Source: Delftia acidovorans NBRC 14950 (lineage in GTDB: Bacteria > Pseudomonadota > Gammaproteobacteria > Burkholderiales > Burkholderiaceae_C). Taken from it: a DNA stretch of 32,000 bases. Location of the stretch: positions 30,001-62,000 of the forward strand of contig NZ_BCZP01000012.1 in the NCBI RefSeq assembly GCF_001598795.1, given 5' to 3'. The notes under the pieces were generated by a model. The model searched no databases. It had not been told where the DNA came from and saw only the letters and a list, made by a program, of their open reading frames with translations. How positions within the stretch are numbered: position 1 is the first letter of the stretch; the number at the start of each line of letters is the position of its first letter. Of the stretch, positions 6,719 to 22,268 are shown piece after piece. The translations under genes were made by a program, and so were the position numbers.

Positions 6719-6731
6719 CTCGGGTCGCCGC

Positions 6732-7235: not shown

Positions 7236-7240
7236 TCGGC

Positions 7241-8224: not shown

Positions 8225-8347
8225 AGGCCTTCGCACTTTCCTGAAAAAAATTTGAGCTGATTTGCCGGCGATGGCTGTCAACAGAGACAGGAGCGCACCG
8301 CAGCGTGCGCCAACGCTTCTCTACAACCATTGCAACAAGGCCTTTCC

Positions 8348-10882
8348 ATGCGCCCTCAGACCATGCGCCAGAACTCCATGCGGCAGACTGCCGCCTCCAC
8401 CGTCCGCCCATCCCCGGCGGCCCCGGCGTTACGTCCGGTGGCGCTGGCGCTGCAGGTGCTGTGCGCGGGCACGCTGGCGGGGCTGGCTGCCGCAGGCGCC
8501 CTGGCTCCGGCCCAGGCCTGGGCGCAGCCGGCTGCCGGTGCTTCGCAGCAACGCCAGTACGACATTGCAGCCGGCCCGCTGGAAAGCGTGCTCAACCAGC
8601 TCGGGCGCGAGGCCGGCGTGCTGGTCACCTTCGGCTCGGCCGTCACCGAAGGGCTGCGCAGCGGCGGCGTGAGCGGGCGCTTCACCGTGGAGCAGGCGCT
8701 GGACCGCGCCTTGCTGGGCACGCCGCTGGCGGCCGTGCGCTCGGCCGGTGGCGGCTACACCCTGCGCGAGATGCCCGTGGTGCCTGCCACCTCCGGCGCG
8801 GCGGGTGCTGCGGGTGCGGCAGGCGCGGGGTCCTCCCAGACACTCAGGACCGTGCTGGTCACGGCCTCGGCCCAGGCCAGCCCCACCACCGAAGGCTCGG
8901 GCTCCTACACCACGCCGGCCACGGCGGCGGCCACGGGCCTGAGCCTGTCGCTGCGCGACACGCCGCAGTCCGTCAGCGTGCTCACGCGCCAGCAGATCGA
9001 GGACCAGGGCCTGCTCTCGCTCAACGACGCCATGCGCAGCGTCACCGGCATCCATGTCGTCAGCTCGGACAGCGACCGCTCGGACTTCTACTCGCGCGGC
9101 TTCTACGTGGACAACCTGCAGTACGACGGCGTGCCCACCTCCATCGGCCTGTCGTTCTACGGTGACTCGGGCACCGATACCACCATCTATGACCGCGTCG
9201 AAGTGGTGCGCGGCGCCACGGGCCTGCTCACGGGCGCGGGCAACCCGTCGGCCTCCATCAACATGGTGCGCAAGCACGCCAACAGCAAGGTGTTCACGGG
9301 CTCGGCCTCGGCCAGCGTGGGCTCGTGGAACCACCATCGCGGCACGGTGGACCTGTCCATGCCGCTGACGCAGGACGGCCGCATCCGCGCACGCGTCGCA
9401 GGCATGGCCGAAGAGCGCGACTCCCATGTGGATCTCTACCACGCGCGCAAGCAGGTCTTCTACGGCGTGATCGATGCCGACCTCACGCCCGACACCACGC
9501 TCAGCGTGGGCGCCGACTACCAGTCCAACCGGCCCACCGGCTCGACCTGGGGCGGCCTGCCGCTGGTCTTCACGAACGGCATGCCAGCCGACTGGAGCAC
9601 CTCCAAGACCACGGCCGCGAACTGGACGCGCTGGAACAGCACCAACAAAAACATCTTCGCCAACCTGCAGCACCGCTTTGGCAACGACTGGAAGCTCAAG
9701 GCCAACTTCGTGCACCGCGACAGCGCCTACGACGCCAAGCTGCTGTACCTCATGCGCCAGCCCGACATCACCACCGGCCTGGGCATGGCGGCCCTGCCCA
9801 ACTACTCCGAATACAGCTTCCAGCAAAACAGCGCCGACCTGCAGGTGACGGGCGGCTGGGAACTGGGCGGGCGCCGCCATGAGGCCGTTGTCGGCCTGAC
9901 CAGCAGCCGCGCCCGCGAGCACAAGGCCGGCCATGCGCGCACCAGCCCCCTGCAGGACGTGGGCAACTACTACCAATGGGACGGCTCCTATGCCGAGCCC
10001 ACCTGGGGGCCGCTGACCACCAGCAGCCTGGACCACACGCGCCAGGACGCGCTGTACGGCGCGCTGCGCCTGTCGCTGGCCGATCCGGTCAAGCTCATCG
10101 TGGGCGGGCGCCAGAGCAGCTGGAAGGTGCGCAGCCTCAGCGAGGTGCGCGACCACAACGTCTTCATCCCCTACGCAGGCCTGGTGCTGGACCTGAGCGA
10201 AGGCTTCTCGGCCTATGCCAGCTACACCGACATCTTCCAGCCTCAGAACTACCGCGACCGCGGCGGCAGCTACCTGGACCCCGTGGCGGGCAAGAGTTTC
10301 GAGATCGGCATCAAGGGCGAGCACCTGGACGGCAGGCTCAACAGCTCGCTGTCCGTCTTCCGCATCCAGCAGGACAACGTGGCCCAGCTGGACGAAGGCC
10401 AGGTCGTGCCCGGCACCACCGACTTCGCCTACTACGGCGCCAAGGGCGTGACCAGCAAGGGCTTCGAGGCCCAGGTCTCGGGCGAGCTGGCCACGGGCTG
10501 GAACCTGTCGGCCGGCATTGCCCACACCGTCGCGCGTGACGCCCAGGGCCTGTCCATCAACGCCTGGGCGCCCAAGACCCAGGCCCAGCTGTTCACTTCC
10601 TACCGCCTGCCCGGTGGGTGGAATCAGCTCACCGTGGGCGGCGGCCTGCAATGGCAAAGCCGCACCCGCGCCAGCGTCTTCGTGGCGGGCAATGACCTGG
10701 TCTTCGAGCAGAAATCCTTCGCCACCGCCAGCCTCATGGCGCGCTATGCCTTCAGCCCCAGGCTCTCGCTGCAGCTGAACCTGAACAACCTCTTCAACAA
10801 GAAGTACTACGTCAACATCGACGGCCAGGGCCAGTTCGGCACGCCGCGCCAGGCCATGGCGGTGCTGAACTACAAGTTCTGA
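8348..10882 (+). CDS. TonB-dependent siderophore receptor with STN signalling domain (third transducer)
   Basis: ATG at 8348 within ORF 8330..10882. Long signal region ending AQAWAQP. STN segment YDIAAGPLESVLNQLGREAGVLVTFGS...EQALDRALLGTPL. Plug motifs PQSVSVLTRQQIEDQG and RVEVVRGATGLLTGAG. C-terminal ...VLNYKF. Confidence 0.9.
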   Translation: MRPQTMRQNSMRQTAASTVRPSPAAPALRPVALALQVLCAGTLAGLAAAGALAPAQAWAQPAAGASQQRQYDIAAGPLESVLNQLGREAGVLVTFGSAVTEGLRSGGVSGRFTVEQALDRALLGTPLAAVRSAGGGYTLREMPVVPATSGAAGAAGAAGAGSSQTLRTVLVTASAQASPTTEGSGSYTTPATAAATGLSLSLRDTPQSVSVLTRQQIEDQGLLSLNDAMRSVTGIHVVSSDSDRSDFYSRGFYVDNLQYDGVPTSIGLSFYGDSGTDTTIYDRVEVVRGATGLLTGAGNPSASINMVRKHANSKVFTGSASASVGSWNHHRGTVDLSMPLTQDGRIRARVAGMAEERDSHVDLYHARKQVFYGVIDADLTPDTTLSVGADYQSNRPTGSTWGGLPLVFTNGMPADWSTSKTTAANWTRWNSTNKNIFANLQHRFGNDWKLKANFVHRDSAYDAKLLYLMRQPDITTGLGMAALPNYSEYSFQQNSADLQVTGGWELGGRRHEAVVGLTSSRAREHKAGHARTSPLQDVGNYYQWDGSYAEPTWGPLTTSSLDHTRQDALYGALRLSLADPVKLIVGGRQSSWKVRSLSEVRDHNVFIPYAGLVLDLSEGFSAYASYTDIFQPQNYRDRGGSYLDPVAGKSFEIGIKGEHLDGRLNSSLSVFRIQQDNVAQLDEGQVVPGTTDFAYYGAKGVTSKGFEAQVSGELATGWNLSAGIAHTVARDAQGLSINAWAPKTQAQLFTSYRLPGGWNQLTVGGGLQWQSRTRASVFVAGNDLVFEQKSFATASLMARYAFSPRLSLQLNLNNLFNKKYYVNIDGQGQFGTPRQAMAVLNYKF

Positions 10883-10894
10883 GTGGACAGGGCC

Positions 10895-10903
10895 GGGGGG
10901 GGG
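10895..10903. repeat. Homopolymeric G9 tract in the receptor-sigma spacer
   Basis: ggccGGGGGGGGGcaac, read directly from the sequence. It lies 13 nt after the receptor stop and about 30 nt upstream of the third Fur box. Confidence 0.9.
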
Positions 10904-10932
10904 CAACAGCGCAGGCCAACCGTTAGAATGCA

Positions 10933-10951
10933 AATGAGAATTGATCTCATA
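10933..10951 (+). promoter_or_regulatory. Fur-box-like operator (AATGAGAATTGATCTCATA)
   Basis: AT-rich island. The 7-1-7 core TGAGAAT-T-GATCTCA matches the consensus at 10 of 14 positions. Its centre lies 48 nt before the ATG at 10990, the same spacing as box 1. Confidence 0.6.
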
Positions 10952-10989
10952 TTTCGGGCCAGCCGCCCACGCATTCCTCCTCCCGCGCC

Positions 10990-11499
10990 ATGTCTGCCGC
11001 CGAAACCTCCCTTCACCGCGAAGTCGCCACGCTCTACACCGACCACCACGGCTGGCTGCAGGGCTGGCTGCGCAAGAAGCTGGGCGATGTGCACCAGGCG
11101 GCCGATCTGGCGCACGACACCTTTTTGCGCCTGCTGGCGCGCGACGAGCCTGTGCAGGCGCGTGAGCCGCGCGCCTTCCTGACCACGGTGGCGCAGCGCG
11201 TGCTGGCCAACCACTACCGGCGCCAGCAACTGGAGCGCGCGTATCTGGAGGCGCTGGCACAGGCGCCGCAGTCCTTTGCCATCTCGCCCGAGGAGCGCGC
11301 GCTGCTGCTGGAGGCGCTGGACGAGATCGACCGCATGCTCGACGGCCTGCCTGCCCCTGTGCGGCGGGCCTTTCTGATGGCCCAGCTGGACGGCATGAAG
11401 CAGGCCGACATTGCGCGCGAGCTGGGCCTGTCGCTGACCACCGTCAAGCGCTACCTGGTGCAGGCCGGCATGCACTGCTATTTCGCGGTGGATGCATGA
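10990..11499 (+). CDS. ECF sigma factor, FecI-like (third copy)
   Basis: ORF 10990..11499 (169 aa). Contains LYTDHHGWLQGWLRKKL, DLAHDTFLRLL and a region-4 HTH (ADIARELGLSLTTVKRYLVQA). Its 3' end overlaps the next gene by 4 nt (ATGA). Confidence 0.9.
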   Translation: MSAAETSLHREVATLYTDHHGWLQGWLRKKLGDVHQAADLAHDTFLRLLARDEPVQAREPRAFLTTVAQRVLANHYRRQQLERAYLEALAQAPQSFAISPEERALLLEALDEIDRMLDGLPAPVRRAFLMAQLDGMKQADIARELGLSLTTVKRYLVQAGMHCYFAVDA

Positions 11500-12506
11500 C
11501 GGCGCCGGGAGCCGGCCTGCCGCCCGAGGTAGCGCGCAGCGCCATCGAGTGGTGGCTGAAGCACCAGGAGGGCGGCCTGTCCGATGAGTTGGCCCGCGAA
11601 TGGCAAGCCTGGCAGGCCTGGCGCGCGGCCGATCCGCTGCACGAGCAGGCCTGGCAGCGCATCACTGCAGTCAACCAGCGGCTGGCTGGGCTGGTGGCGC
11701 CGCCGCAATCACCGATAGCCCGGGCTGCGCTGGCTCCGCGTGGTTCCGCTCGCCGGCGCGTGATCCGGTCCCTGGCCGTTGCGGCCTTTGGTGCCGGCAT
11801 TGCCTGGCAGCTGGAGCAGCGCCTGCCCTGGCAGGGCTGGGTGGCCGATGCACGCACGGCGCGGGGCGAGCGTCGGCAGATGGCGTTGCCGGACGGCACG
11901 CAGATCGTGCTCAACGGCGCCAGCGCGCTGGACATCGAATACGGTCCCCGGCACCGCCGTCTGCGCCTGCTGCAGGGCGAGGTGCTGGTCACCACGGCCA
12001 AGGACACCGAGCAGCCCGCCCGGCCCTTTGCCGTGCAGACCACTGCGGGCGAGGCGCTGGCCCTGGGGACGCGGTTTTCCGTGCGTGCGCTCGCGGATGG
12101 TGATTTCCAGGTGGGTGTGTTCGAGGGGGCCGTGCGCCTGACCCCCCGGCTGGCCGGCCACAGTGTGCTGGTGCTCAGGGCGGGCGAGCAGGCCACGCTG
12201 CGGGCCGATGGCGTCTCGCCAGCCACCGCCGTGCATGAGGACAGCACCGCCTGGACCCAGGGCATGCTGGTGGCGCGCGGCATGCCGCTGGCCCGGATGC
12301 TGGAGGCGCTGCAGCCGTACAGCGATGCGGCCCTGGCCTGCGAGCCCGAAGTGGCCAACCTGCGCATCTCCGGCACCTATCCGCTGGCGGATGTGCCGCG
12401 CGTGCTGGCCGTGATCGGTGCGCTGCCGGGACTGGAGCTGCGCTCCATGACGCGCTGGTGGGGCCGGCGCGAGGTGGTGGTGGGCAAGAAGGCGGCAGGG
12501 GCTTGA
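11496..12506 (+). CDS. FecR-family anti-sigma factor (third copy)
   Basis: ORF 11496..12506 (336 aa). N-terminal ARSAIEWWLKHQ...AWRAADPLHEQAWQ. TM stretch VIRSLAVAAFGAGIAW. GTRFSVRA motif. C-terminal LRISGTYPLADVPRVL. Confidence 0.9.
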   Translation: MTAPGAGLPPEVARSAIEWWLKHQEGGLSDELAREWQAWQAWRAADPLHEQAWQRITAVNQRLAGLVAPPQSPIARAALAPRGSARRRVIRSLAVAAFGAGIAWQLEQRLPWQGWVADARTARGERRQMALPDGTQIVLNGASALDIEYGPRHRRLRLLQGEVLVTTAKDTEQPARPFAVQTTAGEALALGTRFSVRALADGDFQVGVFEGAVRLTPRLAGHSVLVLRAGEQATLRADGVSPATAVHEDSTAWTQGMLVARGMPLARMLEALQPYSDAALACEPEVANLRISGTYPLADVPRVLAVIGALPGLELRSMTRWWGRREVVVGKKAAGA

Positions 12507-12669
12507 GGGGGATCTGCGCAGTTTTTTGAAGAAATCTGCGCCCGGGGTGGTCTGTTTAGAGAACTCGCGGGACATGGAGGAAGAGGGGGGCTTGCCATGC
12601 CGGGCCCGCCCATCGATTCGTCCATCCATCCGTTTGTCTTTTCCTTCCAGGCCCAGTCCTTCGCACACC

Positions 12670-15216
12670 ATGGCATATCCCGCAGCGCCCCGGCGCTTTC
12701 CCTGCGCCTTGCGCCCCTCCGTCGTCCCGTCCCGTGGCCTTTTGCTGGCATTGGCCTGCGCAGGGTTGGGCAGCAACCTGTGGGCGCAGGCGCCTTCGCC
12801 TTCCGTCAACACCACGGCCGCCACGGCAGCCACACGCAGCTACCAGATTCCGGCGGGCACGCTGGAGGACGCGCTCAACCGCTTCGGGCGCGACTCGGGT
12901 TTGCTGCTGTCCTTCACCCAGGACCAGGTCCAGGGCCTGCGCAGCCCGGGGCTGCAGGGCAGCCACACCGCGCAGGCCGGCCTGGCCGCGCTGCTGCAGG
13001 GCACGGGGCTGGAGGCGGCGGTGCAGCCGCAAGGCGGCTATGTGCTGCGCCAGCGCGCCGTGCCCGATGCCCGGGCGCCAGACGTTGCCCCGCGCGCGGT
13101 GTCGCTGGCCGAGGTGCGCGTGGCCGCGCGCCGCGCCGGTGACGGCACGACCGAAGGCACGGGCTCCTACACCAGCCGCGTGACCAGCATTGCCTCCAAG
13201 ACGGACCAGTCGTTCCGCGAGATTGCGCAGTCGGTATCGGTGGTCACACGCGAACAGCTCGACGACCAGCGCGTGACCGATGTGACCGAGGCCCTCAAGC
13301 TCACGCCCGGCGTGGTCGTGGCCAATACCGTGGGCGACTTCTATTCGCGGGGCTTTCAGATCACCAGCATGCAGATCGACGGCGGCGCGCCGCTGGCTTT
13401 GGGCGCATACACCTATTCGCCGCAGCAGGACATGGCCTTCTACGACCGCGTCGAAGTCATGCGCGGCGCCTCGGGCCTGCTGGGCGGCGTGGGCGATCCG
13501 GGCGGCATCATCAACCTGGTGCGCAAGAAGCCGCTGGCCCAGCGGCAGTTCAAGGCCGCGCTGTCGGCCGGCTCCTGGAGCCGGCGCGGCGTGGAGCTCG
13601 ATGCCAGCGCGCCGTTGGCCGACGACGGCCGCGTGCGCGGCCGCGCCGTGCTGTCCTACCACAAGGGTGACTCCTACATGGACCTGCGCAGCAGCGAAAA
13701 GCCCTCGCTCTACGGCGTGCTGGAGGCCGACCTCACGCCAGACACCCTGCTGACCGTGGGCGGCAGCTACGGAAAGACCCATGAGAACGGCGACTATGCC
13801 GGCCTGCCGCGCTTTGCCGACGGCAGCAGCCTTGGCCTGCCGCGCCACACCAACTTCACCCAGCCCTGGGCCTATTACGACTACGAGACCAAGGAGCTGT
13901 TCGCCCAGCTCGAGCACAAGTTCGACAACCGCTGGAAGGCCAAGCTCAACGTCTCGCGCGTGGAGACCGAGCTGGACCGCTTCTGGGTCTACATGGGCGG
14001 CGCCATCAACCCGCAGACCCTGGCGGGTGCGGTCTGGCGCGGCGGCCACATCCAGTCCGGCAATACGCAGGAGGTGGTGGACCTGAGCCTGGGTGGTCCC
14101 TTCCAGCTCATGGGCCGCACGCATGAATTGCTGCTGGGCGCGGACTGGCAGCGCGTGGAAAGCTTCTGGCAAAGCGCCAATTTCACGGGCAGCGGCACCG
14201 TGGCCAGCAATCCGTTTGCCCCCAGCATCTGGACGCCGCCCACGGAAACCTACTTCAACACCCGCTACGGCCCCTGGGGCCAAAAGCAGATGGGCGGCTA
14301 TGGCGTGCTGCGCCTGCATCCCACGGACAGGCTGCACCTCATCCTGGGTGCGCGCGCCAGCCGCTACGACTTCCAGCAGTCGATCTGGAACCTGGATGCG
14401 CAGGGCAACCGCACGCCCTGGTCGAACACGCCGTTCAAGGAACCCACCAAGATCACGCCCTATGGCGGGGTGATCTATGACCTGAACAGCCAGTGGTCGG
14501 CCTATGCCAGCTATTCGTCCATCTTCAAGCCGCAGGCGCTGAGCATGGCCGGCCCGGCGCCGGGCACCTCGCTGCCGCCGGTCAAGGGCGCCAGCTACGA
14601 GGCCGGCCTCAAGGGCGAGCTGATGGACGGGCGGCTGAACGCCACCTTCAGCGTCTTCAATGTGGAGCGCACGGGCACGGCCGTGGTGGACCCGCGCTAC
14701 GAGACCAGCAACAGCCGCTGGGGCGGCAACTGCTGCTACCTGGCACAGGGCAAGGTCACCAGCCGGGGCTTCGACATGGAGCTGGGCGGCGAGCTGCAGC
14801 CCGGCTGGCAGCTGGCAGCGGGCTACACCTTCAACAACACCCGCGACCGCAGCACCGAAAAGACCTACAGCAGCATCACGCCGCGCCACCTGTTCAAGCT
14901 GTCCACGGCCTATACGCTGCCGGGCGAGCTGTCGCGCTGGAAAGTGGGCGGCAGCGCCCAGATCCAGAGCACGCACTACGTCAGCGGCACGGCGCTGTCG
15001 GCGGCGGGCACGTCCGTGCCCTTTGACTTCACGCAGGGCGGCTACGCGCTTTGGAATGCCATGGTGCAGTACCGCATCGACCCGCGCTGGACGGTCACGC
15101 TGAACATCAACAACCTGCTCGACAAGACCTACTACCAGACCCTGGGCACAACGTTCAGCAACAACCTGTATGGCGCACCGCGCCACGCCATGCTCACGCT
15201 GCGCGGCAGCTTCTGA
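12670..15216 (+). CDS. TonB-dependent siderophore receptor with STN signalling domain (fourth transducer)
   Basis: ATG at 12670 within ORF 12526..15216 (MAYPAAPRRF...LLLALACAGLGSNLWAQA). STN segment YQIPAGTLEDALNRFGRDSGLLLSFTQ...AGLAALLQGTGL. Plug motifs AQSVSVVTREQLDDQR and RVEVMRGASGLLGGVG. C-terminal ...TLRGSF. Confidence 0.9.
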   Translation: MAYPAAPRRFPCALRPSVVPSRGLLLALACAGLGSNLWAQAPSPSVNTTAATAATRSYQIPAGTLEDALNRFGRDSGLLLSFTQDQVQGLRSPGLQGSHTAQAGLAALLQGTGLEAAVQPQGGYVLRQRAVPDARAPDVAPRAVSLAEVRVAARRAGDGTTEGTGSYTSRVTSIASKTDQSFREIAQSVSVVTREQLDDQRVTDVTEALKLTPGVVVANTVGDFYSRGFQITSMQIDGGAPLALGAYTYSPQQDMAFYDRVEVMRGASGLLGGVGDPGGIINLVRKKPLAQRQFKAALSAGSWSRRGVELDASAPLADDGRVRGRAVLSYHKGDSYMDLRSSEKPSLYGVLEADLTPDTLLTVGGSYGKTHENGDYAGLPRFADGSSLGLPRHTNFTQPWAYYDYETKELFAQLEHKFDNRWKAKLNVSRVETELDRFWVYMGGAINPQTLAGAVWRGGHIQSGNTQEVVDLSLGGPFQLMGRTHELLLGADWQRVESFWQSANFTGSGTVASNPFAPSIWTPPTETYFNTRYGPWGQKQMGGYGVLRLHPTDRLHLILGARASRYDFQQSIWNLDAQGNRTPWSNTPFKEPTKITPYGGVIYDLNSQWSAYASYSSIFKPQALSMAGPAPGTSLPPVKGASYEAGLKGELMDGRLNATFSVFNVERTGTAVVDPRYETSNSRWGGNCCYLAQGKVTSRGFDMELGGELQPGWQLAAGYTFNNTRDRSTEKTYSSITPRHLFKLSTAYTLPGELSRWKVGGSAQIQSTHYVSGTALSAAGTSVPFDFTQGGYALWNAMVQYRIDPRWTVTLNINNLLDKTYYQTLGTTFSNNLYGAPRHAMLTLRGSF

Positions 15217-15218
15217 GG

Positions 15219-15246
15219 ACGGCGGCGCAGGCGTTCGGGCCGCCGT
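15219..15246. terminator. GC-rich hairpin between convergent genes (ACGGCGGC-N12-GCCGCCGT), without a U-tract
   Basis: An 8-bp perfect stem starts 3 nt after the receptor stop (15214-15216) and ends 27 nt before the stop of the - strand ORF at 15273. With no T-run, it may act as a stabiliser or a rho-dependent site rather than a classical terminator. Confidence 0.35.
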
Positions 15247-15272
15247 TGTGCAGCCAGCGGCCTTGCGGGGGA

Positions 15273-15530
15273 TCACACCACGCGCCGGGTCTCCACCTTC
15301 ACATGGCCGGCCAGCAGGTCGGCACTGTCGCGGATGGCGCGCAGCGCATGGGCCAGGGCCTGCTGGCTGTGGTGCTCCTGCGGTGCATGCACTGCCGCCA
15401 AGGCCAGTTGCGCCAGGGCCGAGATCTCGGAGCAGTTTTCCTGCACGCTGCTGTGGATCTCGGTGATGGCGCTGGTCAACTGGTGCAGGCTGGGGGGCTG
15501 TGTCCTGGGGGTGTCCTTGTCCATGGCCAT
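15273..15530 (-). CDS. Small hypothetical protein (85 aa), paralogue of the upstream ORF
   Basis: ORF 15273..15530. It begins 3 nt after the stop of ORF 15534..15914 (TGA GGC ATG on the - strand). About 50% identity to that ORF over about 60 aa. Shared motifs are C-x-E-I-S-x-x-A-Q-L-A-L-A and A-L-x-x-I-R-D-S-A-x-x-L-A. The start may instead be the ATG at 15524. Confidence 0.6.
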   Translation of the reverse strand: MAMDKDTPRTQPPSLHQLTSAITEIHSSVQENCSEISALAQLALAAVHAPQEHHSQQALAHALRAIRDSADLLAGHVKVETRRVV

Positions 15531-15533
15531 GCC

Positions 15534-15914
15534 TCAGCCCTGCGGGCGCACCGGCTCACGGGTGCGGCATTCGAGCAGTTGCGCCATGGCTTTGGCGGCT
15601 GCCTCGGCCGCTTCGGCGCGGCGCATCTCGGCCGCGTCTTCGAATCCGCAGCCCATGGCCTGGGCCTCGGTGCCGGCGTAGTCGGCCAGCGTCTCGGCGC
15701 TGTCGCGGATGCTTTGCAGGGCGCGGGCCACCACGTCCATGTGGCGATGGCCCTTGGGCGTCTCCAGCCATGCCAGGGCCAGCTGGGCGATGGAGGAGAT
15801 CTCTGCACAGCCTTGCTGCACGAGATGGTCCACCTGGGTGAGGGCATTGGACAGCTGCCGGGTGCTGTGGCTGTCCGTGGCGGGGGTGGGCTGGTTTGGC
15901 TGGGTGGAGGTCAT
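15534..15914 (-). CDS. Small hypothetical protein (126 aa), first gene of a two-gene paralogous pair
   Basis: The internal ATG at 15914 of ORF 15534..16088 is preceded by GGAGGG at a 7-nt spacing on the - strand. The protein starts MTSTQPNQPTPATD... It contains a helical core LTQVDHLVQQGCAEISSIAQLALAWLE...VVARALQSIRDSAETLADY and an Ala/Glu-rich tail. I do not recognise a family with confidence. Confidence 0.6.
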   Translation of the reverse strand: MTSTQPNQPTPATDSHSTRQLSNALTQVDHLVQQGCAEISSIAQLALAWLETPKGHRHMDVVARALQSIRDSAETLADYAGTEAQAMGCGFEDAAEMRRAEAAEAAAKAMAQLLECRTREPVRPQG

Positions 15915-16035
15915 GCCATGTCCCTCCGTGTCTGGCGCTGCGTGGATGGCAAGCGTGAGGGAGGGAGCGCGCAAAGACAGGGCGCGCGGGTCTGCCCGAG
16001 AAAAACGGTACTCATGTTTCGATGCTCCATTACGT

Positions 16036-16082
16036 ATCGAATCCACGGGCCATTGCAATCTGCATTGGCTGGTGGATTCGAT
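16036..16082. promoter_or_regulatory. 47-bp near-perfect palindrome (candidate operator or RNA hairpin) upstream of the small paralogue pair
   Basis: The outer arms ATCGAATCCAC / GTGGATTCGAT are perfect (11 bp). The inner arms GCCATTGCA / TGCATTGGC have one mismatch. Overall 19 of 23 positions are symmetric about 16059. It lies 122-168 nt upstream of the ATG at 15914. On the - strand, a TTGCAA hexamer sits at its centre. Confidence 0.5.
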
Positions 16083-16280
16083 GTGCAAGCCTCGCTTTCG
16101 GAGAGGCGGTGCCGCTTGCTAATGGGTGTTTTGAAGCACCGGCCCCGTGACAGGGGGCTGGTGCGGATGATAGCGCGTGCGGCGTGCGCAAAGTCGCTTC
16201 GCGGCCCGCTGCACCTTGCGATCGCGCCCTTTCAGGGATGGCCCAGGAACCGCTGAAAGAGCCCGGCATGCGTTGCGTTT

Positions 16281-16299
16281 ATTGAGAATGATTCTTCTT
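16281..16299 (+). promoter_or_regulatory. Fur-box-like operator (ATTGAGAATGATTCTTCTT) upstream of the PepSY / MacAB operon
   Basis: Its left half is identical to that of the perfect box at 6700 (ATTGAGAAT). It shares the 12-mer AGAATGATTCTT with box 1. TTGAGA (16282-16287) and TATGAT (16308-16313) are possible -35 and -10 elements, although the 20-nt spacer is long. Confidence 0.65.
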
Positions 16300-16339
16300 T
16301 GCGAGGTTATGATCCAGCCCCATGGATTTGTCCGCCTCC

Positions 16340-16461
16340 CTCACCGCACTCCGCGTGCAGGGTGAGCGCCAGCCCCATGCCGGCCTGCGGGCGGGCGCAG
16401 CAACACCGGGCGTAGGCCGGCAACCACCCAGGCCGCTGTCCATTGCGGCTGGCCTTTTTTT
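16340..16461 (+). ncRNA. Structured leader or candidate small RNA: three hairpins, the last an intrinsic-terminator-like stem plus T7
   Basis: Hairpin A, 16340-16366: CTCACC..GGTGAG plus an inner GCAC..GTGC. Hairpin B, 16378-16422: a 12-bp stem (TGCCGGCCTGCG / CGTAGGCCGGCA) with one G-T pair. Hairpin C, 16428-16452: CCAGGCCGC / GCGGCTGG with one bulge, followed by CC and TTTTTTT (16455-16461). The element sits between the Fur box and the ATG at 16547. Confidence 0.4.
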
Positions 16462-16546
16462 CAATCTCGTTTGTCATGTATCAGGAGGGCCGTTACGGCC
16501 ATTGCTTTCGGCATTTGCATTGCCGCTTTTCTGAACAACCCGCTAC

Positions 16547-16882
16547 ATGTCCCTTTCCCATTCCAGCCAATCCGGCCAATCCGGTCATTCCGCCAAACCC
16601 TCCCATCCGGGCCTGCTTGTGGTTTCCCGCCTGCTGGCCGCCGTCTTCGGCGGCTATGCGCTGGCCAGCGCGCTGGCGGCCTTCCTGGCCGCTGCGCTGC
16701 CCGGCGCGCGTGTCGATGCCGTGATCGCCGGCATGCAGTGGAGCTTTGCGCTGCACGCGCTGGCGGTGATCTGGGCGTTCTCGCCGGTTTCGGCGGGCCG
16801 GGTCTGGCTGGGTTTGCTGGTGCCTGCGGCCCTGATGGGCGGCGCCGCGCTGCTGCTGGCGCGCAATGGCGGGGGCGTTTGA
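16547..16882 (+). CDS. Small integral membrane protein, DUF3649-like (family name from memory), first gene of the iron-regulated operon
   Basis: ORF 16547..16882 (111 aa). A Ser/Gln/Gly-rich N-terminus is followed by three hydrophobic helices (LLVVSRLLAAVFGGYALASALAAFLAAAL, WSFALHALAVIWAF, VWLGLLVPAALMGGAALLLA). Its stop lies 1 nt before the next ATG. The start is uncertain because no clear SD is present; GTG at 16618 is an alternative. Confidence 0.6.
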   Translation: MSLSHSSQSGQSGHSAKPSHPGLLVVSRLLAAVFGGYALASALAAFLAAALPGARVDAVIAGMQWSFALHALAVIWAFSPVSAGRVWLGLLVPAALMGGAALLLARNGGGV

Positions 16883-16883
16883 G

Positions 16884-18599
16884 ATGGCAAAGGCGCAGAT
16901 CAGCAAGGTCCCCGGCAGCGGCGCTGCCACGGGCGGTTTCCGCCAGGCCCAGGCCTGGCTGCATACCTGGTGCGGGCTGTGGTTTTCGTGGCTGCTGTTC
17001 GCGGTGTTCCTCACGGGTTCGCTGGCCGTGTTCCAGGAAGCCATCACGCACTGGATGACACCCGAGCACCATGCCGAGGAGGCGGCCGAGGCGGCAGCGC
17101 GCGCCGCCGCGCCGGCCGGGCAGGGTGCGGACCTGGGCCAGCGCCTGGCCTGGGGCGCGGCCTACATGCAAAAGCACCACCAGGGCGCGCAGATGTGGGA
17201 GATCTGGCCGTCCGACGACAAGGGCGGCGGCGACCTGCATGTCTATTGGTTCGACGCCAACCGCCAGTACGCCGACGCCGAGCTGGACACCGCCACGGGG
17301 GAGGAAATGACGGCAGGCCACGGCCACGGGGCCGCGCGCGCCACCATGGGCGGCAACCATTTCGTGGACTTCCACTATGAACTGCATGCAGGGCAGGTGG
17401 GGCTGTGGGTGATCGGCATTGCCGCCATGGCCATGCTGGTGGCCCTGGTCAGCGGCGTGATCACGCACAAGCGCATCTTCAAGGACTTCTTCACCTTTCG
17501 CGCACGCAAGGGCCAGCGCAGCTGGCTGGACGCGCACAACGCCGTGGCGGTGCTGACGCTGCCCTTCCAGTTCATGATTGCCTATACCGGCATCGCCATC
17601 TCCAGCCTGAGCTTCATGCCCGTTGGCGTCTGGACGGTCTATGGCACGGACCAGGCCGCCCGCACGGCCTTCATCGCCGACATGACCGAGGCCGGGCCGC
17701 CCGCGCCTTCCGGCAAGCCCATGGCCGTGCCGGATCTGGAGTCGTTTGCACGGCGCGGCCAGGAGCTGATGGGCCAGGCGGTGCGCGCGGTGGTCGTCAA
17801 CCATCCCGGCGATGCGTCGGCACGCATCGGCGTCTACGGCTGGAACAGCGATGACCGTGCGCATCAGCGCCTGAGCCCCAATTCGGGCATGGCCATGTTC
17901 TCGGCCGCCACGGGCGAGGTGCTGCAGGTGCGCCTGCCCGGCGGTGCCGACGGCGGCACCCCCTCGCTGGCCCAGGCGGTCATGGGCGGGCTGCACATGG
18001 TCAAGTTCGGCGGGCTGGCCATGAAGTGGCTGTACTTCCTGTGCGGCCTGGCGGGCGCGGCCATGATGGCCACGGGCGCCATCCTCTTCATGGTCAAGCG
18101 CCGCAGCCGCCACCAGGGCGAGTTCGGCAGCGCCACGGCGCGCGTGTACCGGCTGATCGAGGGCCTGAACGTGGCGGCCATCGCCGGGCTGGGCCTGGGC
18201 TGCATCGGCTATCTGTGGGCCAACCGCCTGGTGCCCGTGGGCCTGGCGCACCGCGATGACTGGGAGCTGGCCGTGTTCTTCGGCCTGTGGGGCCTGGCGC
18301 TGATCCATGCGCTGGCCTGCGCGCCGGCCACGGCCTGGCGCCAGCAGATGGGCCTGCTGGCCATGCTGTGCCTGCTGCTGCCGCTGCTCAACTGGATCAC
18401 CGTGGGCGAGCCGCTGTCGGCCCACATGCTGGAGGGCGACTGGGAAAGCGCCGGGGTGGAGCTGTTCTGCCTGGCCACGGGGCTGGCGGCCGCCTGGGCC
18501 TGGCGCTGGCTGGCGCGGCGCGGCGCGGGTGCCGCCGCCAAGGCAAGGACGGCCAAGGGGCAGGCCGCCGTGGCCGGCCCCTCGGAGGTGCAGGCATGA
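16884..18599 (+). CDS. PepSY-associated TM-helix protein (PiuB/FoxB-like putative inner-membrane siderophore/iron reductase)
   Basis: ORF 16866..18599, with the ATG at 16884 directly after the upstream stop. Starts with the typical RQAQAWLHTWCGLWFSWLLFAVFLTGSL, followed by periplasmic loops and further TM helices. His residues flank the helices (ITHWMTPEHH, HFVDFHYELH, ITHKRIF, LDAHNAV, GGLHMVKFGG), as expected for haem ligation in this family. Confidence 0.8.
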   Translation: MAKAQISKVPGSGAATGGFRQAQAWLHTWCGLWFSWLLFAVFLTGSLAVFQEAITHWMTPEHHAEEAAEAAARAAAPAGQGADLGQRLAWGAAYMQKHHQGAQMWEIWPSDDKGGGDLHVYWFDANRQYADAELDTATGEEMTAGHGHGAARATMGGNHFVDFHYELHAGQVGLWVIGIAAMAMLVALVSGVITHKRIFKDFFTFRARKGQRSWLDAHNAVAVLTLPFQFMIAYTGIAISSLSFMPVGVWTVYGTDQAARTAFIADMTEAGPPAPSGKPMAVPDLESFARRGQELMGQAVRAVVVNHPGDASARIGVYGWNSDDRAHQRLSPNSGMAMFSAATGEVLQVRLPGGADGGTPSLAQAVMGGLHMVKFGGLAMKWLYFLCGLAGAAMMATGAILFMVKRRSRHQGEFGSATARVYRLIEGLNVAAIAGLGLGCIGYLWANRLVPVGLAHRDDWELAVFFGLWGLALIHALACAPATAWRQQMGLLAMLCLLLPLLNWITVGEPLSAHMLEGDWESAGVELFCLATGLAAAWAWRWLARRGAGAAAKARTAKGQAAVAGPSEVQA

Positions 18600-18973
18600 G
18601 CACGTTGCACGCATCCCTGGCCGCACTGGCCCTGGCCTTTGCAGGCATGGCGGCCCTGGCCTTTGCCATGGACCGCCACTACGAACAATTGACCGGCGCG
18701 CGCGAGCTGCCGGCCCGCCGTGGCCCGCAGTTGCGCGGCCTGGGCACGGCGCTGCTGGCGCTGGCCCTTGTGCCCGTTCTTTCGGGCTGGGGCGGCACGG
18801 TGGGCACGGTGGCCTGGCTGGGCTTTGTGTCCGCCGGCGCGCTGATGGCCGTGGCCCTGATCAGCGCCCATGCGCGCTGGGCGGCGCGGCTGGCCTGGTT
18901 GGCTGGCGTGCTTGCCGTGGCGGATTTGGCATGGATTGTTTTCAGTTTCGGTACTACGGGGTTTTTCAGATGA
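18596..18973 (+). CDS. Small integral membrane protein, DUF3325-like (family name from memory)
   Basis: The ATG at 18596 overlaps the PepSY stop (ATGA) and lies in ORF 18287..18973. The protein starts MSTLHASLAALALAFAGMAALAFAMDRHYEQLTG... It has about four hydrophobic helices. The trio of small membrane protein, PepSY-TM protein and small membrane protein is a recurrent arrangement as I recall it. Confidence 0.6.
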   Translation: MSTLHASLAALALAFAGMAALAFAMDRHYEQLTGARELPARRGPQLRGLGTALLALALVPVLSGWGGTVGTVAWLGFVSAGALMAVALISAHARWAARLAWLAGVLAVADLAWIVFSFGTTGFFR

Positions 18974-19022
18974 GTTTCCTGCTTTCGTTCCAGTTCGGGG
19001 TGTGTGTGATCGGGAGGCAAGC

Positions 19023-20273
19023 ATGACGCGCACGCAGCAACGCTGGAAAGCCATCGCCGTGGCGGTGGTCCTGTTGGCGGCGGCCGGGGGCGCGGCCGCC
19101 TGGTGGTCCAGCCGGCCTGCCGTGGCCTACCAGACCGAGACCGTGGCGCGCACCGATATCGAGTCCACCGTCACGGCCATCGGCACGCTGCAGCCGCGCC
19201 GCTATGTGGACGTGGGCGCCCAGGTGTCGGGCCAGGTCACCCGGCTGCGCGTGGAGCCCGGCGCCCAGGTGGAAAAGGGCGCACTGCTGGTGGAGATCGA
19301 CCCCAGCGTGCAGCGCGCCACGGTGGATGCGGGGCGTGCCTCGCTGGCGGGCCTGCGCGCCCAGCTGGCCGAGCAGCAGGCGCTGCGCAAGCTGGCCGAG
19401 CAGCAGCTCACGCGCCAGCGCCAGCTGGCCCGCGACGGGGCCACGCGCGAGGAAGACCTGCAGACCGCAGAAGCCAACCTGGCCGCAGCCGGCGCCCGCA
19501 TGGAGCACCTGAAGGCCCAGATCGACCAGACCCAGGCCACGCTCAAGGCCGACGAGGCGCGCCTGGGCTATACGCGCATCTACGCGCCCATGGCGGGCAC
19601 CGTGGTGTCGGTGGAGGCGCGCGAGGGCCAGACGCTGAACGCCACCTACCAGACGCCCAACATCCTGCGCATTGCCGACCTGTCGGCCATGACGGTGTGG
19701 ACCGAGGTGTCCGAGGCCGACGTGCGCCGCGTGCGCGACGACATGCCGGTGTACTTCACCACGCTGGGCGGCGCCGACCAGGCCAGGCCCCGGCGCTGGT
19801 CCAGCAAGGTGCGCCAGGTGCTGCCTTCGCCCTCTACCAGCCAGGCACCGGCCGGCGGCAATGCGGGCCAGGCGCCTGCGCCCGCCACCAAGGCCGTGGC
19901 CTATACCGTGCTGTTCGATGTGGACAATGAGGACGCCGAGCTGATGCCCCAGATGACGGCCCAGGTGGTCTTTGTCACCGGGCAGGCCGCGCAGGCGCTG
20001 ACCGTGCCGCTGATGGCCGTGGCCGACAAGGCGGGAACGACTGACAAGGCAGAAAAGGCAGAAAAAGCCGAGAAGGCCGAGAAGGCCGAGAAGGCCGGCA
20101 GCACGCAGACCGTGCGCGTGCTGGACGCCAAGGGCCAGCCCGAGCAGCGCACCGTGCGCCTGGGCGTGCGCAGCCGCCACCAGGCCGAGGTGCTGGAGGG
20201 CCTGCAGGAAGGCGAGCGCGTCATCGTCGGCGAGACGCCTCTGGACCGTGGCCCGCGGTGGCTGCAATGGTGA
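19023..20273 (+). CDS. macA: Efflux periplasmic adaptor (membrane fusion protein), MacA/PvdR-like
   Basis: The ATG at 19023 within ORF 18870..20273 is preceded by GGGAGG. It has an N-terminal TM anchor (WKAIAVAVVLLAAAGGAAAWW), a lipoyl/barrel motif (VDVGAQVSGQVTRLRVEPGAQVEKGALLVEIDP), a long coiled-coil hairpin, and LGYTRIYAPMAGTVVSV. Confidence 0.85.
   Translation: MTRTQQRWKAIAVAVVLLAAAGGAAAWWSSRPAVAYQTETVARTDIESTVTAIGTLQPRRYVDVGAQVSGQVTRLRVEPGAQVEKGALLVEIDPSVQRATVDAGRASLAGLRAQLAEQQALRKLAEQQLTRQRQLARDGATREEDLQTAEANLAAAGARMEHLKAQIDQTQATLKADEARLGYTRIYAPMAGTVVSVEAREGQTLNATYQTPNILRIADLSAMTVWTEVSEADVRRVRDDMPVYFTTLGGADQARPRRWSSKVRQVLPSPSTSQAPAGGNAGQAPAPATKAVAYTVLFDVDNEDAELMPQMTAQVVFVTGQAAQALTVPLMAVADKAGTTDKAEKAEKAEKAEKAEKAGSTQTVRVLDAKGQPEQRTVRLGVRSRHQAEVLEGLQEGERVIVGETPLDRGPRWLQW
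20043..20096 (+). repeat. In-frame 9-bp tandem repeat x6 encoding D/E-K-A units inside the adaptor gene
   Basis: The units are gacaaggca gaaaaggca gaaaaagcc gagaaggcc gagaaggcc gagaaggcc. The last three units are identical. Translation is DKAEKAEKAEKAEKAEKA. Confidence 0.95.
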
Positions 20274-22267
20274 TGGCGCAGGGCATGCAGGCCGGCGCGC
20301 CGCTGACCGCACCGCTGATAGAGCTGCGCGGCATCACCAAGCACTACGGCGGCGGCGACAGCGGCCAGCCCGCCGTCACCGTGCTGCACGGCATCGACCT
20401 GGAGATACGCGCGGGTGAGTTCGTCGCGGTGGTGGGCAGCTCGGGCTCGGGCAAGTCCACGCTGATGAACATCCTGGGCTGCCTGGACCGGCCCAGCGAG
20501 GGCAGCTACCACTTCCAGGGCCAGGACGTGGCCACGCTGGACTCGGACGCGCTGGCCTGGCTGCGGCGCGAGGCCTTCGGCTTCGTCTTCCAGGGCTACC
20601 ACCTGATAGCCAGCGAAAGCGCCAGCGAGAACGTGGAAATGCCCGCCATCTACGCGGGCCTGCCCAAGGAAGAGCGCGTGCGGCGCGCCCGTGCGCTGCT
20701 GGAGCGCCTGGGCCTGGGCTCGCGCCTGGGCAACCGGCCCAACCAGCTGTCGGGCGGGCAGCAGCAGCGCGTGTCGATTGCGCGCGCGCTGATGAACGGC
20801 GGCCAGATCATCCTGGCCGACGAGCCCACGGGCGCGCTGGACTCGCACAGCGGCGCCGAAGTCATGGCCCTGCTGCGCGAGCTGGCCGACGCGGGCCACA
20901 CCATCATCCTCATCACCCACGACCGCACTGTGGCCGCCCAGGCGCGCCGCGTGATCGAGATCAGCGACGGCCGCATCACCAGCGACAGCCAGCGCGACGA
21001 TGCCACTAATGGGGTGAATGCGGGCGCCGCTGCCCTGCCGCTCACGCCGCAGCGTGGCAGCGCCGGCGCGCCCTGGCTGGCGGAACTGTTCGAGGCCGCG
21101 CGCAGCGCCTGGCGCGGCATGCGCATGAACCGCGTGCGCACCAGCCTGACCTTGCTGGGCATCGTCATCGGCGTGGCCTCGGTGATTGTCATGCTGGCCA
21201 TTGGCGAGGGCGCGCGGCGCAAGGTGGTCGAGCAGATGGGGACCATGGGCACGGCCATCCTCTACATGGGCAGCAAACCGCCGGCCACGGGCGGGCCGGC
21301 CGGGCAGATGACCGAGGAAGACCTGGCCGCCGTGCGCGAACTGCCCGAGATACGGCGCGTCATGCCCGTGATCGGCGACCCCATCACCGTGCGCTACGGC
21401 AAGGCCGACAAGCAGATCTACGTGTTCGCGGCCAGCGAGGAGATGCCCCTGGTGCACCACTGGAAGCTGGCCCAGGGCCGCTACTACACCGAGGCCGAGG
21501 ACCGCGACCTGGCGCCCCTGGTGGTCCTGGGCCACAAGGCGCACCAGCACTTCTTCCCCGACACGCCCAACCCGCTGGGCCGCCAGCTGATCATCGGTAC
21601 ATCGGCCTTCGAGGTCATCGGCGTGATGAGCGAGCGGGGCGCGGACTCGGGCGCGCAGAACTATGACGACATGGTCTTCATTCCCTACCGCTCGGGCCGG
21701 GCGCGCGTCTACCAGTCGCAGACCCAGCCCGACTATGTGGTGATCGAGGCCATGTCCTCCGACGTGGTGCACGAGGCGGAGGAGGCCATGCGCAAGCTGC
21801 TGCTGGCGCGCCACGGCGGGCGCGAGGACTTCGGCATCGGCAATGCGGCCGCGCGCATCCAGGCCGAGGCCGCCACGCGCCAGAGCATGGCGGTGATGCT
21901 GGGCCTGATTGCCGCCGTCTCCCTGGTGGTGGGCGGCATCGGCGTGATGAACGTGATGCTGATGACGGTGCGCGAGCGCACGCGCGAGATCGGCATCCGC
22001 ATGGCCACGGGCGCGCGCCAGCGCGACATCCTGCGCCAGTTCCTGACCGAGGCCAGCCTGGTCACCTTCGTGGGCGGCACGGTGGGCCTGCTGGCCGGGC
22101 TGGCCGTGGGCGTGGTGCTCATCGTGGCGGGCGTGCCCGTGGTGTTTTCGGTGCGCGCCATGCTGGGCGCCTTTGCATGCGCCGTGGTGACGGGCCTGGT
22201 GTTCGGCTACATGCCTGCCAAGACGGCGGCGCGGCTGGACCCGGTGCGCGCGCTGGCGGGAGAGTGA
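20267..22267 (+). CDS. macB: MacB-type ABC transporter, fused ATPase plus FtsX-like permease (MacB/PvdT-like)
   Basis: ORF 20258..22267. Walker A GSSGSGKST, ABC signature LSGGQQQRVSIARAL and Walker B ILADEPTGALD. These are followed by four TM helices with a large periplasmic loop and a C-terminal ...YMPAKTAARLDPVRALA. The start is ambiguous: ATG at 20267, or ATG at 20273 overlapping the upstream stop. Confidence 0.9.
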   Translation: MVMAQGMQAGAPLTAPLIELRGITKHYGGGDSGQPAVTVLHGIDLEIRAGEFVAVVGSSGSGKSTLMNILGCLDRPSEGSYHFQGQDVATLDSDALAWLRREAFGFVFQGYHLIASESASENVEMPAIYAGLPKEERVRRARALLERLGLGSRLGNRPNQLSGGQQQRVSIARALMNGGQIILADEPTGALDSHSGAEVMALLRELADAGHTIILITHDRTVAAQARRVIEISDGRITSDSQRDDATNGVNAGAAALPLTPQRGSAGAPWLAELFEAARSAWRGMRMNRVRTSLTLLGIVIGVASVIVMLAIGEGARRKVVEQMGTMGTAILYMGSKPPATGGPAGQMTEEDLAAVRELPEIRRVMPVIGDPITVRYGKADKQIYVFAASEEMPLVHHWKLAQGRYYTEAEDRDLAPLVVLGHKAHQHFFPDTPNPLGRQLIIGTSAFEVIGVMSERGADSGAQNYDDMVFIPYRSGRARVYQSQTQPDYVVIEAMSSDVVHEAEEAMRKLLLARHGGREDFGIGNAAARIQAEAATRQSMAVMLGLIAAVSLVVGGIGVMNVMLMTVRERTREIGIRMATGARQRDILRQFLTEASLVTFVGGTVGLLAGLAVGVVLIVAGVPVVFSVRAMLGAFACAVVTGLVFGYMPAKTAARLDPVRALAGE

Positions 22268-22268
22268 G

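Follow-up and report, generated by a model that had tools for sequence, protein, structure and literature searches.

The window analysed here, by which we mean the whole stretch of 32,000 nucleotides (nt) from Delftia acidovorans NBRC 14950 (contig NZ_BCZP01000012.1, positions 30,001 to 62,000), holds two adjacent minus-strand genes, here named A and B, that encode small paralogous proteins and lie within an iron locus. We read the pair as a cassette of mobile-element origin, now chromosomal, orphaned and partly decayed, with the plan of the immI operon of phage P1 (c4, icd, ant), and give this reading a probability of about 0.6. Judged from its sequence, the window copy retains a promoter-like block, one predicted target site, an upstream open reading frame (uORF) and the implied translational coupling, and has lost the regulatory RNA and the downstream target sites. 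An exhaustive profile search recovered 501 representative clusters (defined at 50% identity) with E ≤ 1e-3, of which 156 reach E ≤ 1e-10; the family profile used below is that of the 60-member alignment A2. Five independent lineages have a family member in an operon directly behind a C4 or sRNA-Xcc1 RNA, and in two of the five it also stands 3 nt before a gene for an AntA/ORF6N antirepressor. Related loci and proteins are denoted below by L and P numbers, respectively. The features of the pair and its leader are as follows.

15273..15530, minus strand: gene B, 85 aa, truncated paralogue with helices 1 and 2 only (evidence: open reading frame, third-position GC, paralogy, profile match)
15534..15914, minus strand: gene A, 126 aa, full-length family member with three predicted helices (evidence: open reading frame, third-position GC, profile match, orthologues)
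15911..16015, minus strand: uORF, 34 codons (MSTVFLGQ...), with its own GGAG at about 16025-16028; its TGA overlaps the ATG of A (ATGA)
15922-15927, minus strand: Shine-Dalgarno sequence of A, GGAGGG, 7 nt 5' of the ATG and within the 3' end of the uORF
15915..16166, minus strand: whole 5' leader of the uORF-A-B transcript in its short form, with antisense-RNA element and downstream target sites absent
16125..16172, minus strand: block at the 5' end of the leader, consisting of TATCAT, an 11-bp GC hairpin and GGTGCTTCAAAACACC
16125-16140, minus strand: GGTGCTTCAAAACACC, predicted upstream ("a1-type") target site for the C4/sRNA-Xcc1-like RNA of related loci
16136-16164, minus strand: the 11-bp GC hairpin
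16167-16172, minus strand: the -10-like TATCAT

Antisense RNA elements and covarying target sites

Matches to Rfam models were judged against the gathering scores of 45 for C4 and 53 for sRNA-Xcc1 (RF02221). A C4 RNA lies directly upstream of the operon with the family member in L041 (64.9 bits) and L019 (55.2 bits), with matches to c4-a1b1 and isrK a little further upstream. The sRNA-Xcc1 RNA is found immediately before the family member in L026 (63.7 bits) and L037 (61.3 bits), and at a sub-threshold 45 bits in L030. At the same relative position in loci L001, L002, L013, L014 and L045, matches of 29–38 bits extend over the full sRNA-Xcc1 model. Two more tandem sRNA-Xcc1-like copies (48 and 42 bits) were observed in L037 (3564-3750) upstream of the above-threshold copy, an arrangement that recalls the clustered sRNA-Xcc1 homologues of a Xylella genomic island (PMC12189769).

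In every case a single-stranded stretch of the element is complementary to an upstream site of the form GGTGC-core-ACACC, and in the long-leader loci of Delftia and Comamonas a second copy of the core, downstream of the element, is complementary as well. Five cores were seen (UUCAAAAC, GUAAGAAC, UGAAC, UCAAAAC and UCGAAAC), with L026, L037 and L030 carrying cores other than the types of the A locus and L045. The element sequence GUGUUUUGAA is complementary to the flanking sequences UUCAAAACAC and UUCAAAACGCG, and at L045 (8680-8875, the locus of protein P0041) the same architecture is present with a switched element, GUGUUCUUA, and targets UAAGAACAC and UAAGAACGCG; the corresponding core of the A locus is UUCAAAAC. 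Pairing over the Shine-Dalgarno sequence of the uORF covaries between loci and involves UCUGUGUG with CACACAGG in L002 and L013, UCUUGCUA with UAGCAAGG in L001, and UCUUGCUG with CAGUAAGG in L014. The predicted duplex over the Shine-Dalgarno sequence of the first open reading frame (ORF) reaches -29 kcal/mol in L026 (z = -4.8) and -31 kcal/mol in L041 (z = -4.2).

The block at the 5' end of the leader is nearly invariant in seven Delftia loci, including solo second copies of A, and A-U/G-C exchanges between loci are seen within its GC hairpin. Recent duplication was rejected as the cause of this conservation, since the block is near-invariant despite diverged flanks and synonymous sites and carries paired changes. 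The GGTGCTTCAAAACACC motif is unique in the window, where only the upstream type of target site is retained; relatives have both types with compensatory changes. The leader of the window (15905-16165) folds at -104 kcal/mol, as compared with -82 +/- 5 kcal/mol for shuffled sequences (z = -4.4). A scan for sigma-70 promoters over 15000-16700 found nothing. A weak match to PtaRNA1 on the plus strand (16116-16168; 17 bits, E = 0.58) was put down to the GC hairpin and taken as noise. L001 and L003 each have divergent small genes upstream of the pair; these were considered as parts of the cassette and rejected, being unrelated to one another.

Leaders occur in a short form (the window, L003-L008, L015 and L017) and a long form (L001, L002, L013, L014 and L045) that is about 110 nt longer, the extra part being the sRNA-Xcc1-like match. 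The region that was compared spans 15932-16094 in the window and 7731-7977 in L013, together with L014. Close strains differ in leader form at orthologous loci and the solo second copies share the form of the window, which suggests that cassette copies have exchanged sequence. The uORF, which stands where a P1 immI-type operon has icd, overlaps A as ATGA in 7 of 10 related loci; in L002 and L003/L004 it forms an in-frame fusion with A. Because its TGA overlaps the ATG of A, translational coupling of the uORF to A is implied. The Shine-Dalgarno sequence of A is conserved as CACGGAGGG across all aligned Delftia loci.

Genomic contexts of distant family members

Outside the Delftia/Comamonas lineage, ten distinct contexts were examined, and each of them resembles a mobile element.

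L018 (Erwinia endophytica): integrase, AlpA, family member, D5-type primase/helicase
L019 (Nitrotoga): family member, AlpA, HTH_39, integrase
L023: integrase, BrnT/BrnA, small-gene block with the family member, PriCT_2/Toprim_3/DUF927 primase
L041: primase operon of the L023 kind (PriCT_2/Toprim_3/DUF927)
L026 (IMG/VR contig) and L037: AAA_21 ATPase, family member, 3 nt later an AntA antirepressor
L030: DUF3987 and a phage-protein domain, three tandem family genes
L032: tape-measure protein, terminase, tRNA
L020: small-gene block including DUF5681
L027: adjoins serS

The AntA gene of L026 also gives a weak match to ORF6N (21.2 bits against a cut-off of 27.8 bits). In L018, L023 and L041 small genes fill the interval from alpA (or an antirepressor) to the primase, and the family member is one of them, as in P4-like and phage-inducible chromosomal island (PICI)-type satellites. 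An E. coli relative of the Erwinia element (L044) has capsid, protease and portal genes and lacks the family member; a blastn search of E. coli genomes with the Erwinia gene hit the neighbouring gene alone. The family member would thus be an accessory rather than a core part of satellite-type elements; the Delftia loci, for their part, are unlike these elements in having no satellite genes. The E. coli element has an Icd-like protein that is, by inspection, unrelated, and no C4-type RNA was matched in that element. The int-alpA RNA (Rfam RF02996; gathering score 35.8) was detected at 59 and 64 bits in L023 (7315-7394) and L044 (2613-2680), where it is placed directly after the family member and after the integrase gene, respectively.

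A tblastn search of 72,556 plasmid records with A, P0066 and P0051 gave no relevant match. The scarcity of the family in phage collections, which is detailed below, fits satellites and islands better than bona fide phages.

A and B as members of an uncurated protein family

A sequence-only reading had described two adjacent minus-strand ORFs of 126 and 85 codons separated by 3 nt, and this is exactly what the window holds, the 3 nt lying between the TGA of A and the ATG of B. The GGAGGG noted before the first gene is present 7 nt from its ATG. The reported identity of about 50% over some 60 residues is slightly generous, at 46% over a 59-aa core, and the paralogy itself is sound: BLASTP aligns A and B without gaps at 33 of 77 identical positions (43%, E = 3e-14). 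The GC content of the window is 69%, which is Delftia-like, and long spurious ORFs are common in all six frames. At codon positions 1/2/3 GC amounts to 0.71/0.53/0.86 in A and 0.69/0.45/0.88 in B, with flanking genes alike, and overlapping plus-strand ORFs show the mirror pattern; the coding signature is restricted to the frame of A and B. Intact orthologues of both genes, always adjacent and 3 nt apart, were found in Delftia spp., a Comamonas metagenome-assembled genome (MAG) and metagenomes. They form two clear, syntenic orthologous groups (A-type and B-type), and nucleotide identity reaches 93–98% at the orthologous loci of D. tsuruhatensis, D. acidovorans and unclassified Delftia. The ratio of nonsynonymous to synonymous substitution against orthologues (dN/dS, Nei-Gojobori) is 0.36–0.57 for A and 0.31–0.79 for B, in line with purifying selection. 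No signal peptide was found in A or B, and a maximum Kyte-Doolittle 19-residue mean of 0.9 leaves no hydrophobic segment in either, as had been claimed. The coding-frame GC at third positions (GC3), the syntenic orthologues and dN/dS below 1 bear out the earlier view that A and B are real genes, and they are supported as paralogous, cytoplasmic helical proteins outside any curated family.

The relatives are mostly 100–125 aa long (roughly 110 aa is typical), and those with named sources come from Delftia, Comamonas, Rhodoferax, Nitrotoga, Cupriavidus, Pseudothauera and Erwinia; word-based searches recovered relatives of the Delftia type only. The consensus of the family is L..A...MD.L.Q.GfSEI.AIAkLAL..LETP.G....E.iA.AL.AI...A......I..EAE.VGC.Y.D....RR..A. 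The family profile is matched by A at 129 bits over positions 3-106 and by B at 87 bits over positions 2-82 only. Conserved positions among 157 distant members are L21, D29, Q33, I39, L47, E51, P53, I69, A73, A84, E85, G88, C89, D93, R98, R99 and A102, of which the set D29, Q33, E51, P53, E85, G88-C89, D93, R98-R99 and A102, termed here the polar set, is conserved at 78–93%. This set is present in A, except for a Gln at the position of E85. B has His at family positions 29 and 51 and ends where the GC..D..RR helix would start, with nothing after about family position 87; for these reasons it is, on sequence grounds, a truncated and divergent paralogue with a His cluster of its own (H53, H54, H61 and H76, invariant across B orthologues, in a protein that is 8% His).

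The single invariant Cys and the His-rich connecting loop that had been taken to define the two proteins do not hold for the family. A has three Cys (36, 89 and 116); position 36 is Cys in 14% of the distant members, Phe or Leu being usual, and the His of the loop is found in 20–24% of them. The Cys conserved family-wide is Cys89 of A (87%), which is absent from B, and among A orthologues the His/Cys positions shift to Cys or Gln. Cys36 and the His-rich loop are therefore to be read as features of the lineage and not of the family. Metal could be bound by the His cluster that is specific to B.

The AlphaFold2 model of A, computed with a 60-sequence alignment (mean predicted local distance difference test score, pLDDT, 89.8), has helices at 14-50, 59-86 and 94-118, and B aligns to the first two only, as a bare hairpin. 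The two-helix hairpin predicted earlier thus fits B, judged by alignment, and does not fit A. No curated model was matched in Pfam by A or B (hmmscan, E ≤ 10), the 60 A2 members (E ≤ 0.01) or 10 further relatives (E ≤ 10), nor in NCBIfam by A, B or the 60 members, where Icd-like models likewise gave no hit; PHROGs gave no match for the 60 members and PADLOC none for A and its 59 A2 relatives. The faint resemblance to DUF3077 (PF11275) that had been mentioned finds no match in hmmscan of A, B and about 70 relatives, and the statement that the proteins belong to no known family stands as far as curated models go but has to make room for the uncurated family of about 500 clusters. Foldseek with two AlphaFold2 models against PDB and with one against BFVD returned nothing below an E of about 0.9, and a profile search of PDB sequences gave no significant match. 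The top fold matches were repeatedly the helical hairpins of histidine-kinase dimerization and histidine phosphotransfer (DHp) domains and of ChpT, at E 1–8, and are generic for helical hairpins. The proteins would serve as a helical-bundle module for protein-protein interaction. As far as the libraries searched show, the family and its link with C4/sRNA-Xcc1 RNAs are undescribed.

Two other arrangements of the family domain resemble A/B. In L030 (7339-8279) three tandem family genes, a mix of hairpin-only and full-length forms, follow a single sRNA-Xcc1-like element, and P0048 (279 aa) consists of three fused domain repeats with the GC..D..RR helix in the last only. Arrays that combine truncated and complete copies, like A/B, have therefore arisen more than once. 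P0046 is a fusion of the N-terminal 90 family residues to GroES, matches the Cpn10 and GroES models, and is probably an artefact of assembly or gene calling; GroES as the identity of the family was rejected, the match stemming from this chimera alone.

The iron neighbourhood

That the pair is embedded in an iron locus, as described in the sequence-only reading, is correct. The surrounding genes are as follows.

18-2432: STN-type TonB-dependent transducer gene
2516-6626, 6732-10882 and 10990-15216: three cassettes of extracytoplasmic function (ECF) sigma, FecR and transducer genes
16547-18599: DUF3649 and PepSY_TM genes, beyond the A/B pair

The role in metal or haem handling that had been offered, as speculation, from this location and the His/Cys content is not supported by the behaviour of the neighbours. 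The stretch with the third cassette (10878-15266, 4.4 kb) is polymorphic for presence and absence. It is absent from D. tsuruhatensis NBRC 16741 (L013) and D. acidovorans MMO-42 (L014), where the flanks are 94–98% identical to the window and the pair abuts the second transducer; L009 keeps it at 98% identity. Upstream of the pair in another Delftia lineage lies a sigma/FecR fusion gene, or else unrelated genes. D. tsuruhatensis NBRC 16741 (L015) and D. acidovorans MMO-42 (L017) also have a second, solo A with its leader, at a synonymous divergence (dS) of about 0.08 from A of the window; that of L017 has no B, and its neighbours are a dctA-like transporter gene on one side and a methyl-accepting chemotaxis gene on the other. 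The divergent Delftia paralogue P0041 (L045) lies between UPF0114 and a lipoate-ligase gene, and is one of at least four more divergent paralogue types held by Delftia genomes (P0038, P0039, P0041 and P0049). Upstream of the pair, the Comamonas MAG (L001) has AbiTii at 6074-6955, and metagenome contig L002 has, directly upstream, two SMODS/SLATT gene sets at 3030-7017 (a defence system of the cyclic-oligonucleotide-based antiphage signalling type, CBASS, or a related one). With neighbours that change, a cassette that is dispensable, solo copies, contexts of the Comamonas type and distant members on mobile elements, the iron link is not upheld and the placement of A and B looks incidental.

A palindrome resembling a Fur box, TTGAGAATGATTCTTC, lies in the shared intergenic region at 16282-16297 (plus strand). 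It faces a plus-strand gene remnant, and is about 110 nt beyond the -10-like element of A; the leaders of L003, L015 and L017 do not have it. A 70-codon ORF with its ATG at 16322 (plus strand) shares its first six codons with the beginning of the sigma/FecR fusion gene (454 aa) of L004, and a terminator-like site of a hairpin and T7 follows at 16431-16457. The segment 16282-16457 looks like what is left of an ECF sigma gene regulated by Fur, and a short iron-regulated transcript could arise from it ahead of the DUF3649/PepSY operon. The Fur 19-mer consensus gave no match at up to 3 mismatches. The same palindrome, GAGAATnATTCT, is matched 4 times in the window, where chance would give 0.01; with 1 mismatch it occurs at 2497-2508 and 6703-6715, some 20–30 nt ahead of two ECF sigma genes (2516 and 6732), and it is probably the local form of the Fur box. 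No site of this type was found before the third sigma gene (10990). After the PepSY gene follows an HlyD/MacB/OEP tripartite efflux system (18870-23723), which may be a siderophore or peptide exporter of the same iron region. No tRNA genes were found in the window.

Comparison with immI and sRNA-Xcc1 cassettes

In immI of phages P1 and P7, c4 RNA keeps icd from being translated, and icd is in turn coupled to ant, the antirepressor gene (PMC8201110). The parts predicted here from sequence follow one another in the order known from immI: a promoter, upstream targets, a processed antisense RNA, downstream targets over the ribosome-binding site of a small first ORF, and a coupled payload. As in immI, specificity would be set by matched changes in RNA loops and targets, and the switched antisense specificity of L045 is analogous to the c4 heteroimmunity of P1 and P7. 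Family members moreover stand behind genuine matches to C4 (L019, L041) and ahead of AntA (L026, L037). Unlike in immI, the proteins A and B are unrelated to Icd (none of A, B and 60 relatives matches an Icd-like model of NCBIfam) or to Ant; the Delftia payload is the A/B pair and not an antirepressor, with B following A in the window; and the Delftia cassette is chromosomal with no phage genes nearby, its window copy being without the RNA and the downstream targets.

The other precedent is the sRNA-Xcc1 cassette of integrons, genomic islands and APSE phages, to which the likeness consists in the elements of L026 and L037, which pass the gathering score, and in those of L030 and of Delftia/Comamonas, which match the full length of the model. 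Reportedly, sRNA-Xcc1 was originally described as a trans-acting small RNA under HrpG/HrpX control, whereas the targets indicated here lie in cis, on the transcript of the RNA itself. Elements of the Delftia lineage also differ in being shortened (29–38 bits against a cut-off of 53), and the window has none. In APSE phages sRNA-Xcc1 lies upstream of an ORF6N-domain protein (PMC7313666), the domain that is matched below its cut-off by the AntA gene following the family member in L026.

Several results weigh against reading the pair as an immI-like cassette. Rfam models matched neither in the leader nor anywhere else in the 32-kb window, so no C4-type RNA was found there, and for the window copy the regulatory mechanism would have to be carried over from orthologous loci. 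In the Delftia/Comamonas lineage all sRNA-Xcc1 matches are below the gathering score and their Shine-Dalgarno duplexes are individually no better than shuffles (z from +0.6 to -1.8); the case for antisense control in these genera is thus one of position and covariation. Integrase, primase and antirepressor genes are all absent from the window, and no compositional anomaly is seen at the pair, which has native GC. For these two reasons a derivation of A and B from a mobile element would hold at the level of the family. In phage collections the family is nearly absent: tblastn of A and the Erwinia family member against 50,697 phage records gave no hit, three IMG/VR scans yielded a single viral contig, and there was no PHROG match. 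For an A-B bundle, finally, Foldseek and PDB sequence searches gave nothing below an E of about 1.

Alternative explanations

The 69% GC of the DNA, with long spurious ORFs on all six frames, raises the question of whether A and B might be chance or shadow ORFs. Coding-type GC3 confined to their frame, frame-conserved orthologues with dN/dS below 1, profile matches to hundreds of proteins in other genera and a confident AlphaFold2 model effectively refute this, and we give it almost no credence. An anti-activator role, in which A and/or B would bind and inhibit a transcription factor as the DUF1484-annotated VioS of Chromobacterium does the LuxR-type regulator CviR, is unlikely, though a lead. 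It agrees with the protein-level part of the cassette reading and goes further in specifying a family and a target. UniRef calls one B orthologue (P0196) a "DUF1484 family protein", and DUF1484 proteins are about 110 aa long and betaproteobacterial. VioS (138 aa, with a weak DUF1484 match) represses CviR-dependent genes and binds CviR in a yeast two-hybrid assay, and de-repression of vioS gives larger siderophore halos in Chromobacterium (PMC5339254, PMC11019928, PMC13043044). The three tandem DUF1484 genes CV_0008-0010 of C. violaceum, which lie beside a DUF2357 gene (CV_0007) and a gene for an ATP-binding protein (PMC13545060), resemble the tandem arrays found here. Compared by description, VioS is a small (110–140 aa) cytoplasmic betaproteobacterial protein without an enzymatic motif, and its whole action is to bind a regulator, a mechanism of the type that we propose for A and B. 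Yet hmmscan at E ≤ 10 gave no DUF1484 match for A, B, P0196 and nine other members, in a library copy in which the presence of PF07363 is unconfirmed, and 0 of the 60 A2 members matched at E ≤ 0.01. The plasmid search with three family members gave nothing relevant, no LuxR-type gene is adjacent to the pair in the window, and vioS, unlike the family genes, is under the TetR-type repressor VitR, with no antisense RNA reported for it in the available parts of the same sources. We regard the relation to VioS and DUF1484 as a lead and not as a classification.

An addiction module of type I-like build, in which the uORF peptide or A would inhibit growth, a C4-like RNA would be the antitoxin, B perhaps a protein antidote, and solo cassettes would persist selfishly, seems improbable to us. 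In related loci the first ORF would be under antisense RNA control, and Icd of P1, which has the same position, is a cell-division inhibitor (PMC8201110); the two genes are tightly coupled, with the second a truncated copy of the first, and single cassettes are scattered over unrelated intergenic spots, with defence genes adjoining L001 and L002. The copies of the window and of L003, L004, L015 and L017, however, have no RNA and nevertheless keep an intact A under purifying selection, and solo copies of A do without B. No toxin or antitoxin was matched in PADLOC or Pfam and nothing Icd-like in NCBIfam, the uORF peptide shows little conservation beyond 6 residues and has no hydrophobic stretch of transmembrane length, and most mobile elements hold the family member singly, inside longer operons. 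Membership in a type II toxin-antitoxin system finds no match either (A and B in Pfam and NCBIfam, A in PADLOC), and A and B are paralogues of each other. A decidedly improbable reading, to our mind, is that the pair binds metal or haem, or responds to iron, in the service of the surrounding transducer and PepSY genes. Three FecI-FecR-transducer cassettes and the DUF3649/PepSY_TM operon flank it, all Delftia loci seen have it in convergent orientation to an STN-type transducer gene, B has its invariant His residues, and the Fur-box-like palindrome lies in the shared intergenic region. Set against this, His and Cys are not family features and are replaced by Cys or Gln in A orthologues, and the palindrome faces the plus-strand remnant far from the -10-like element and is missing upstream of second copies and in L003. 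The transducer beside the pair varies between strains and its whole cassette is dispensable, relatives occur in non-iron contexts, and proteins without a signal peptide would have no access to periplasmic siderophore traffic.

Proposed mechanism

In the immI-like cassette that we favour, transcription of uORF-A-B would start just downstream of TATCAT, and translation of the uORF would drive that of A and then of B. In strains with the long leader, a processed antisense RNA would block the ribosome-binding site of the uORF and thereby silence A and B; in the window this control would either be lost or be supplied in trans by a sister cassette. A, with its hairpin and a third, basic helix, and B, with the hairpin only, would assemble into a helical bundle that acts by protein-protein contact on a regulator or host factor, the working surface being the conserved polar residues of A and B being a modulating or decoy subunit. 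The iron surroundings would be incidental, the cassette having come to lie at the variable end of the FecI-FecR-transducer array.

A bolder extension, which we consider very improbable, would have Delftia chromosomes carry a network of domesticated immI-derived cassettes (A/B, solo copies of A, P0038, P0039, P0041 and P0049), with RNAs that have diverged in specificity and regulate one another's cassettes in trans. The A-B heterodimer would then be a VioS-like inhibitor of a host transcription factor, possibly tuning siderophore uptake, and the His-rich B would possibly confer a response to metal. Siderophore uptake is named as the target because of the precedent of VioS, CviR and siderophores and because of the fixed place of the cassette at the end of the FecI-FecR-transducer array.

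Implications

For this locus, the analysis removes a tempting but unsupported link of two orphan proteins to iron sensing. The architecture itself is a variant of the known immI type, and the pair is one that has been uncharacterised so far. An unnamed family of about 500 clusters gains a context as the recurrent cargo of C4/sRNA-Xcc1-controlled operons on satellites, islands and prophages. The findings further suggest for sRNA-Xcc1, an RNA that had been linked to virulence and to action in trans, a role in these loci like that of c4 in P1, as a cis-encoded translational gate of switchable specificity.

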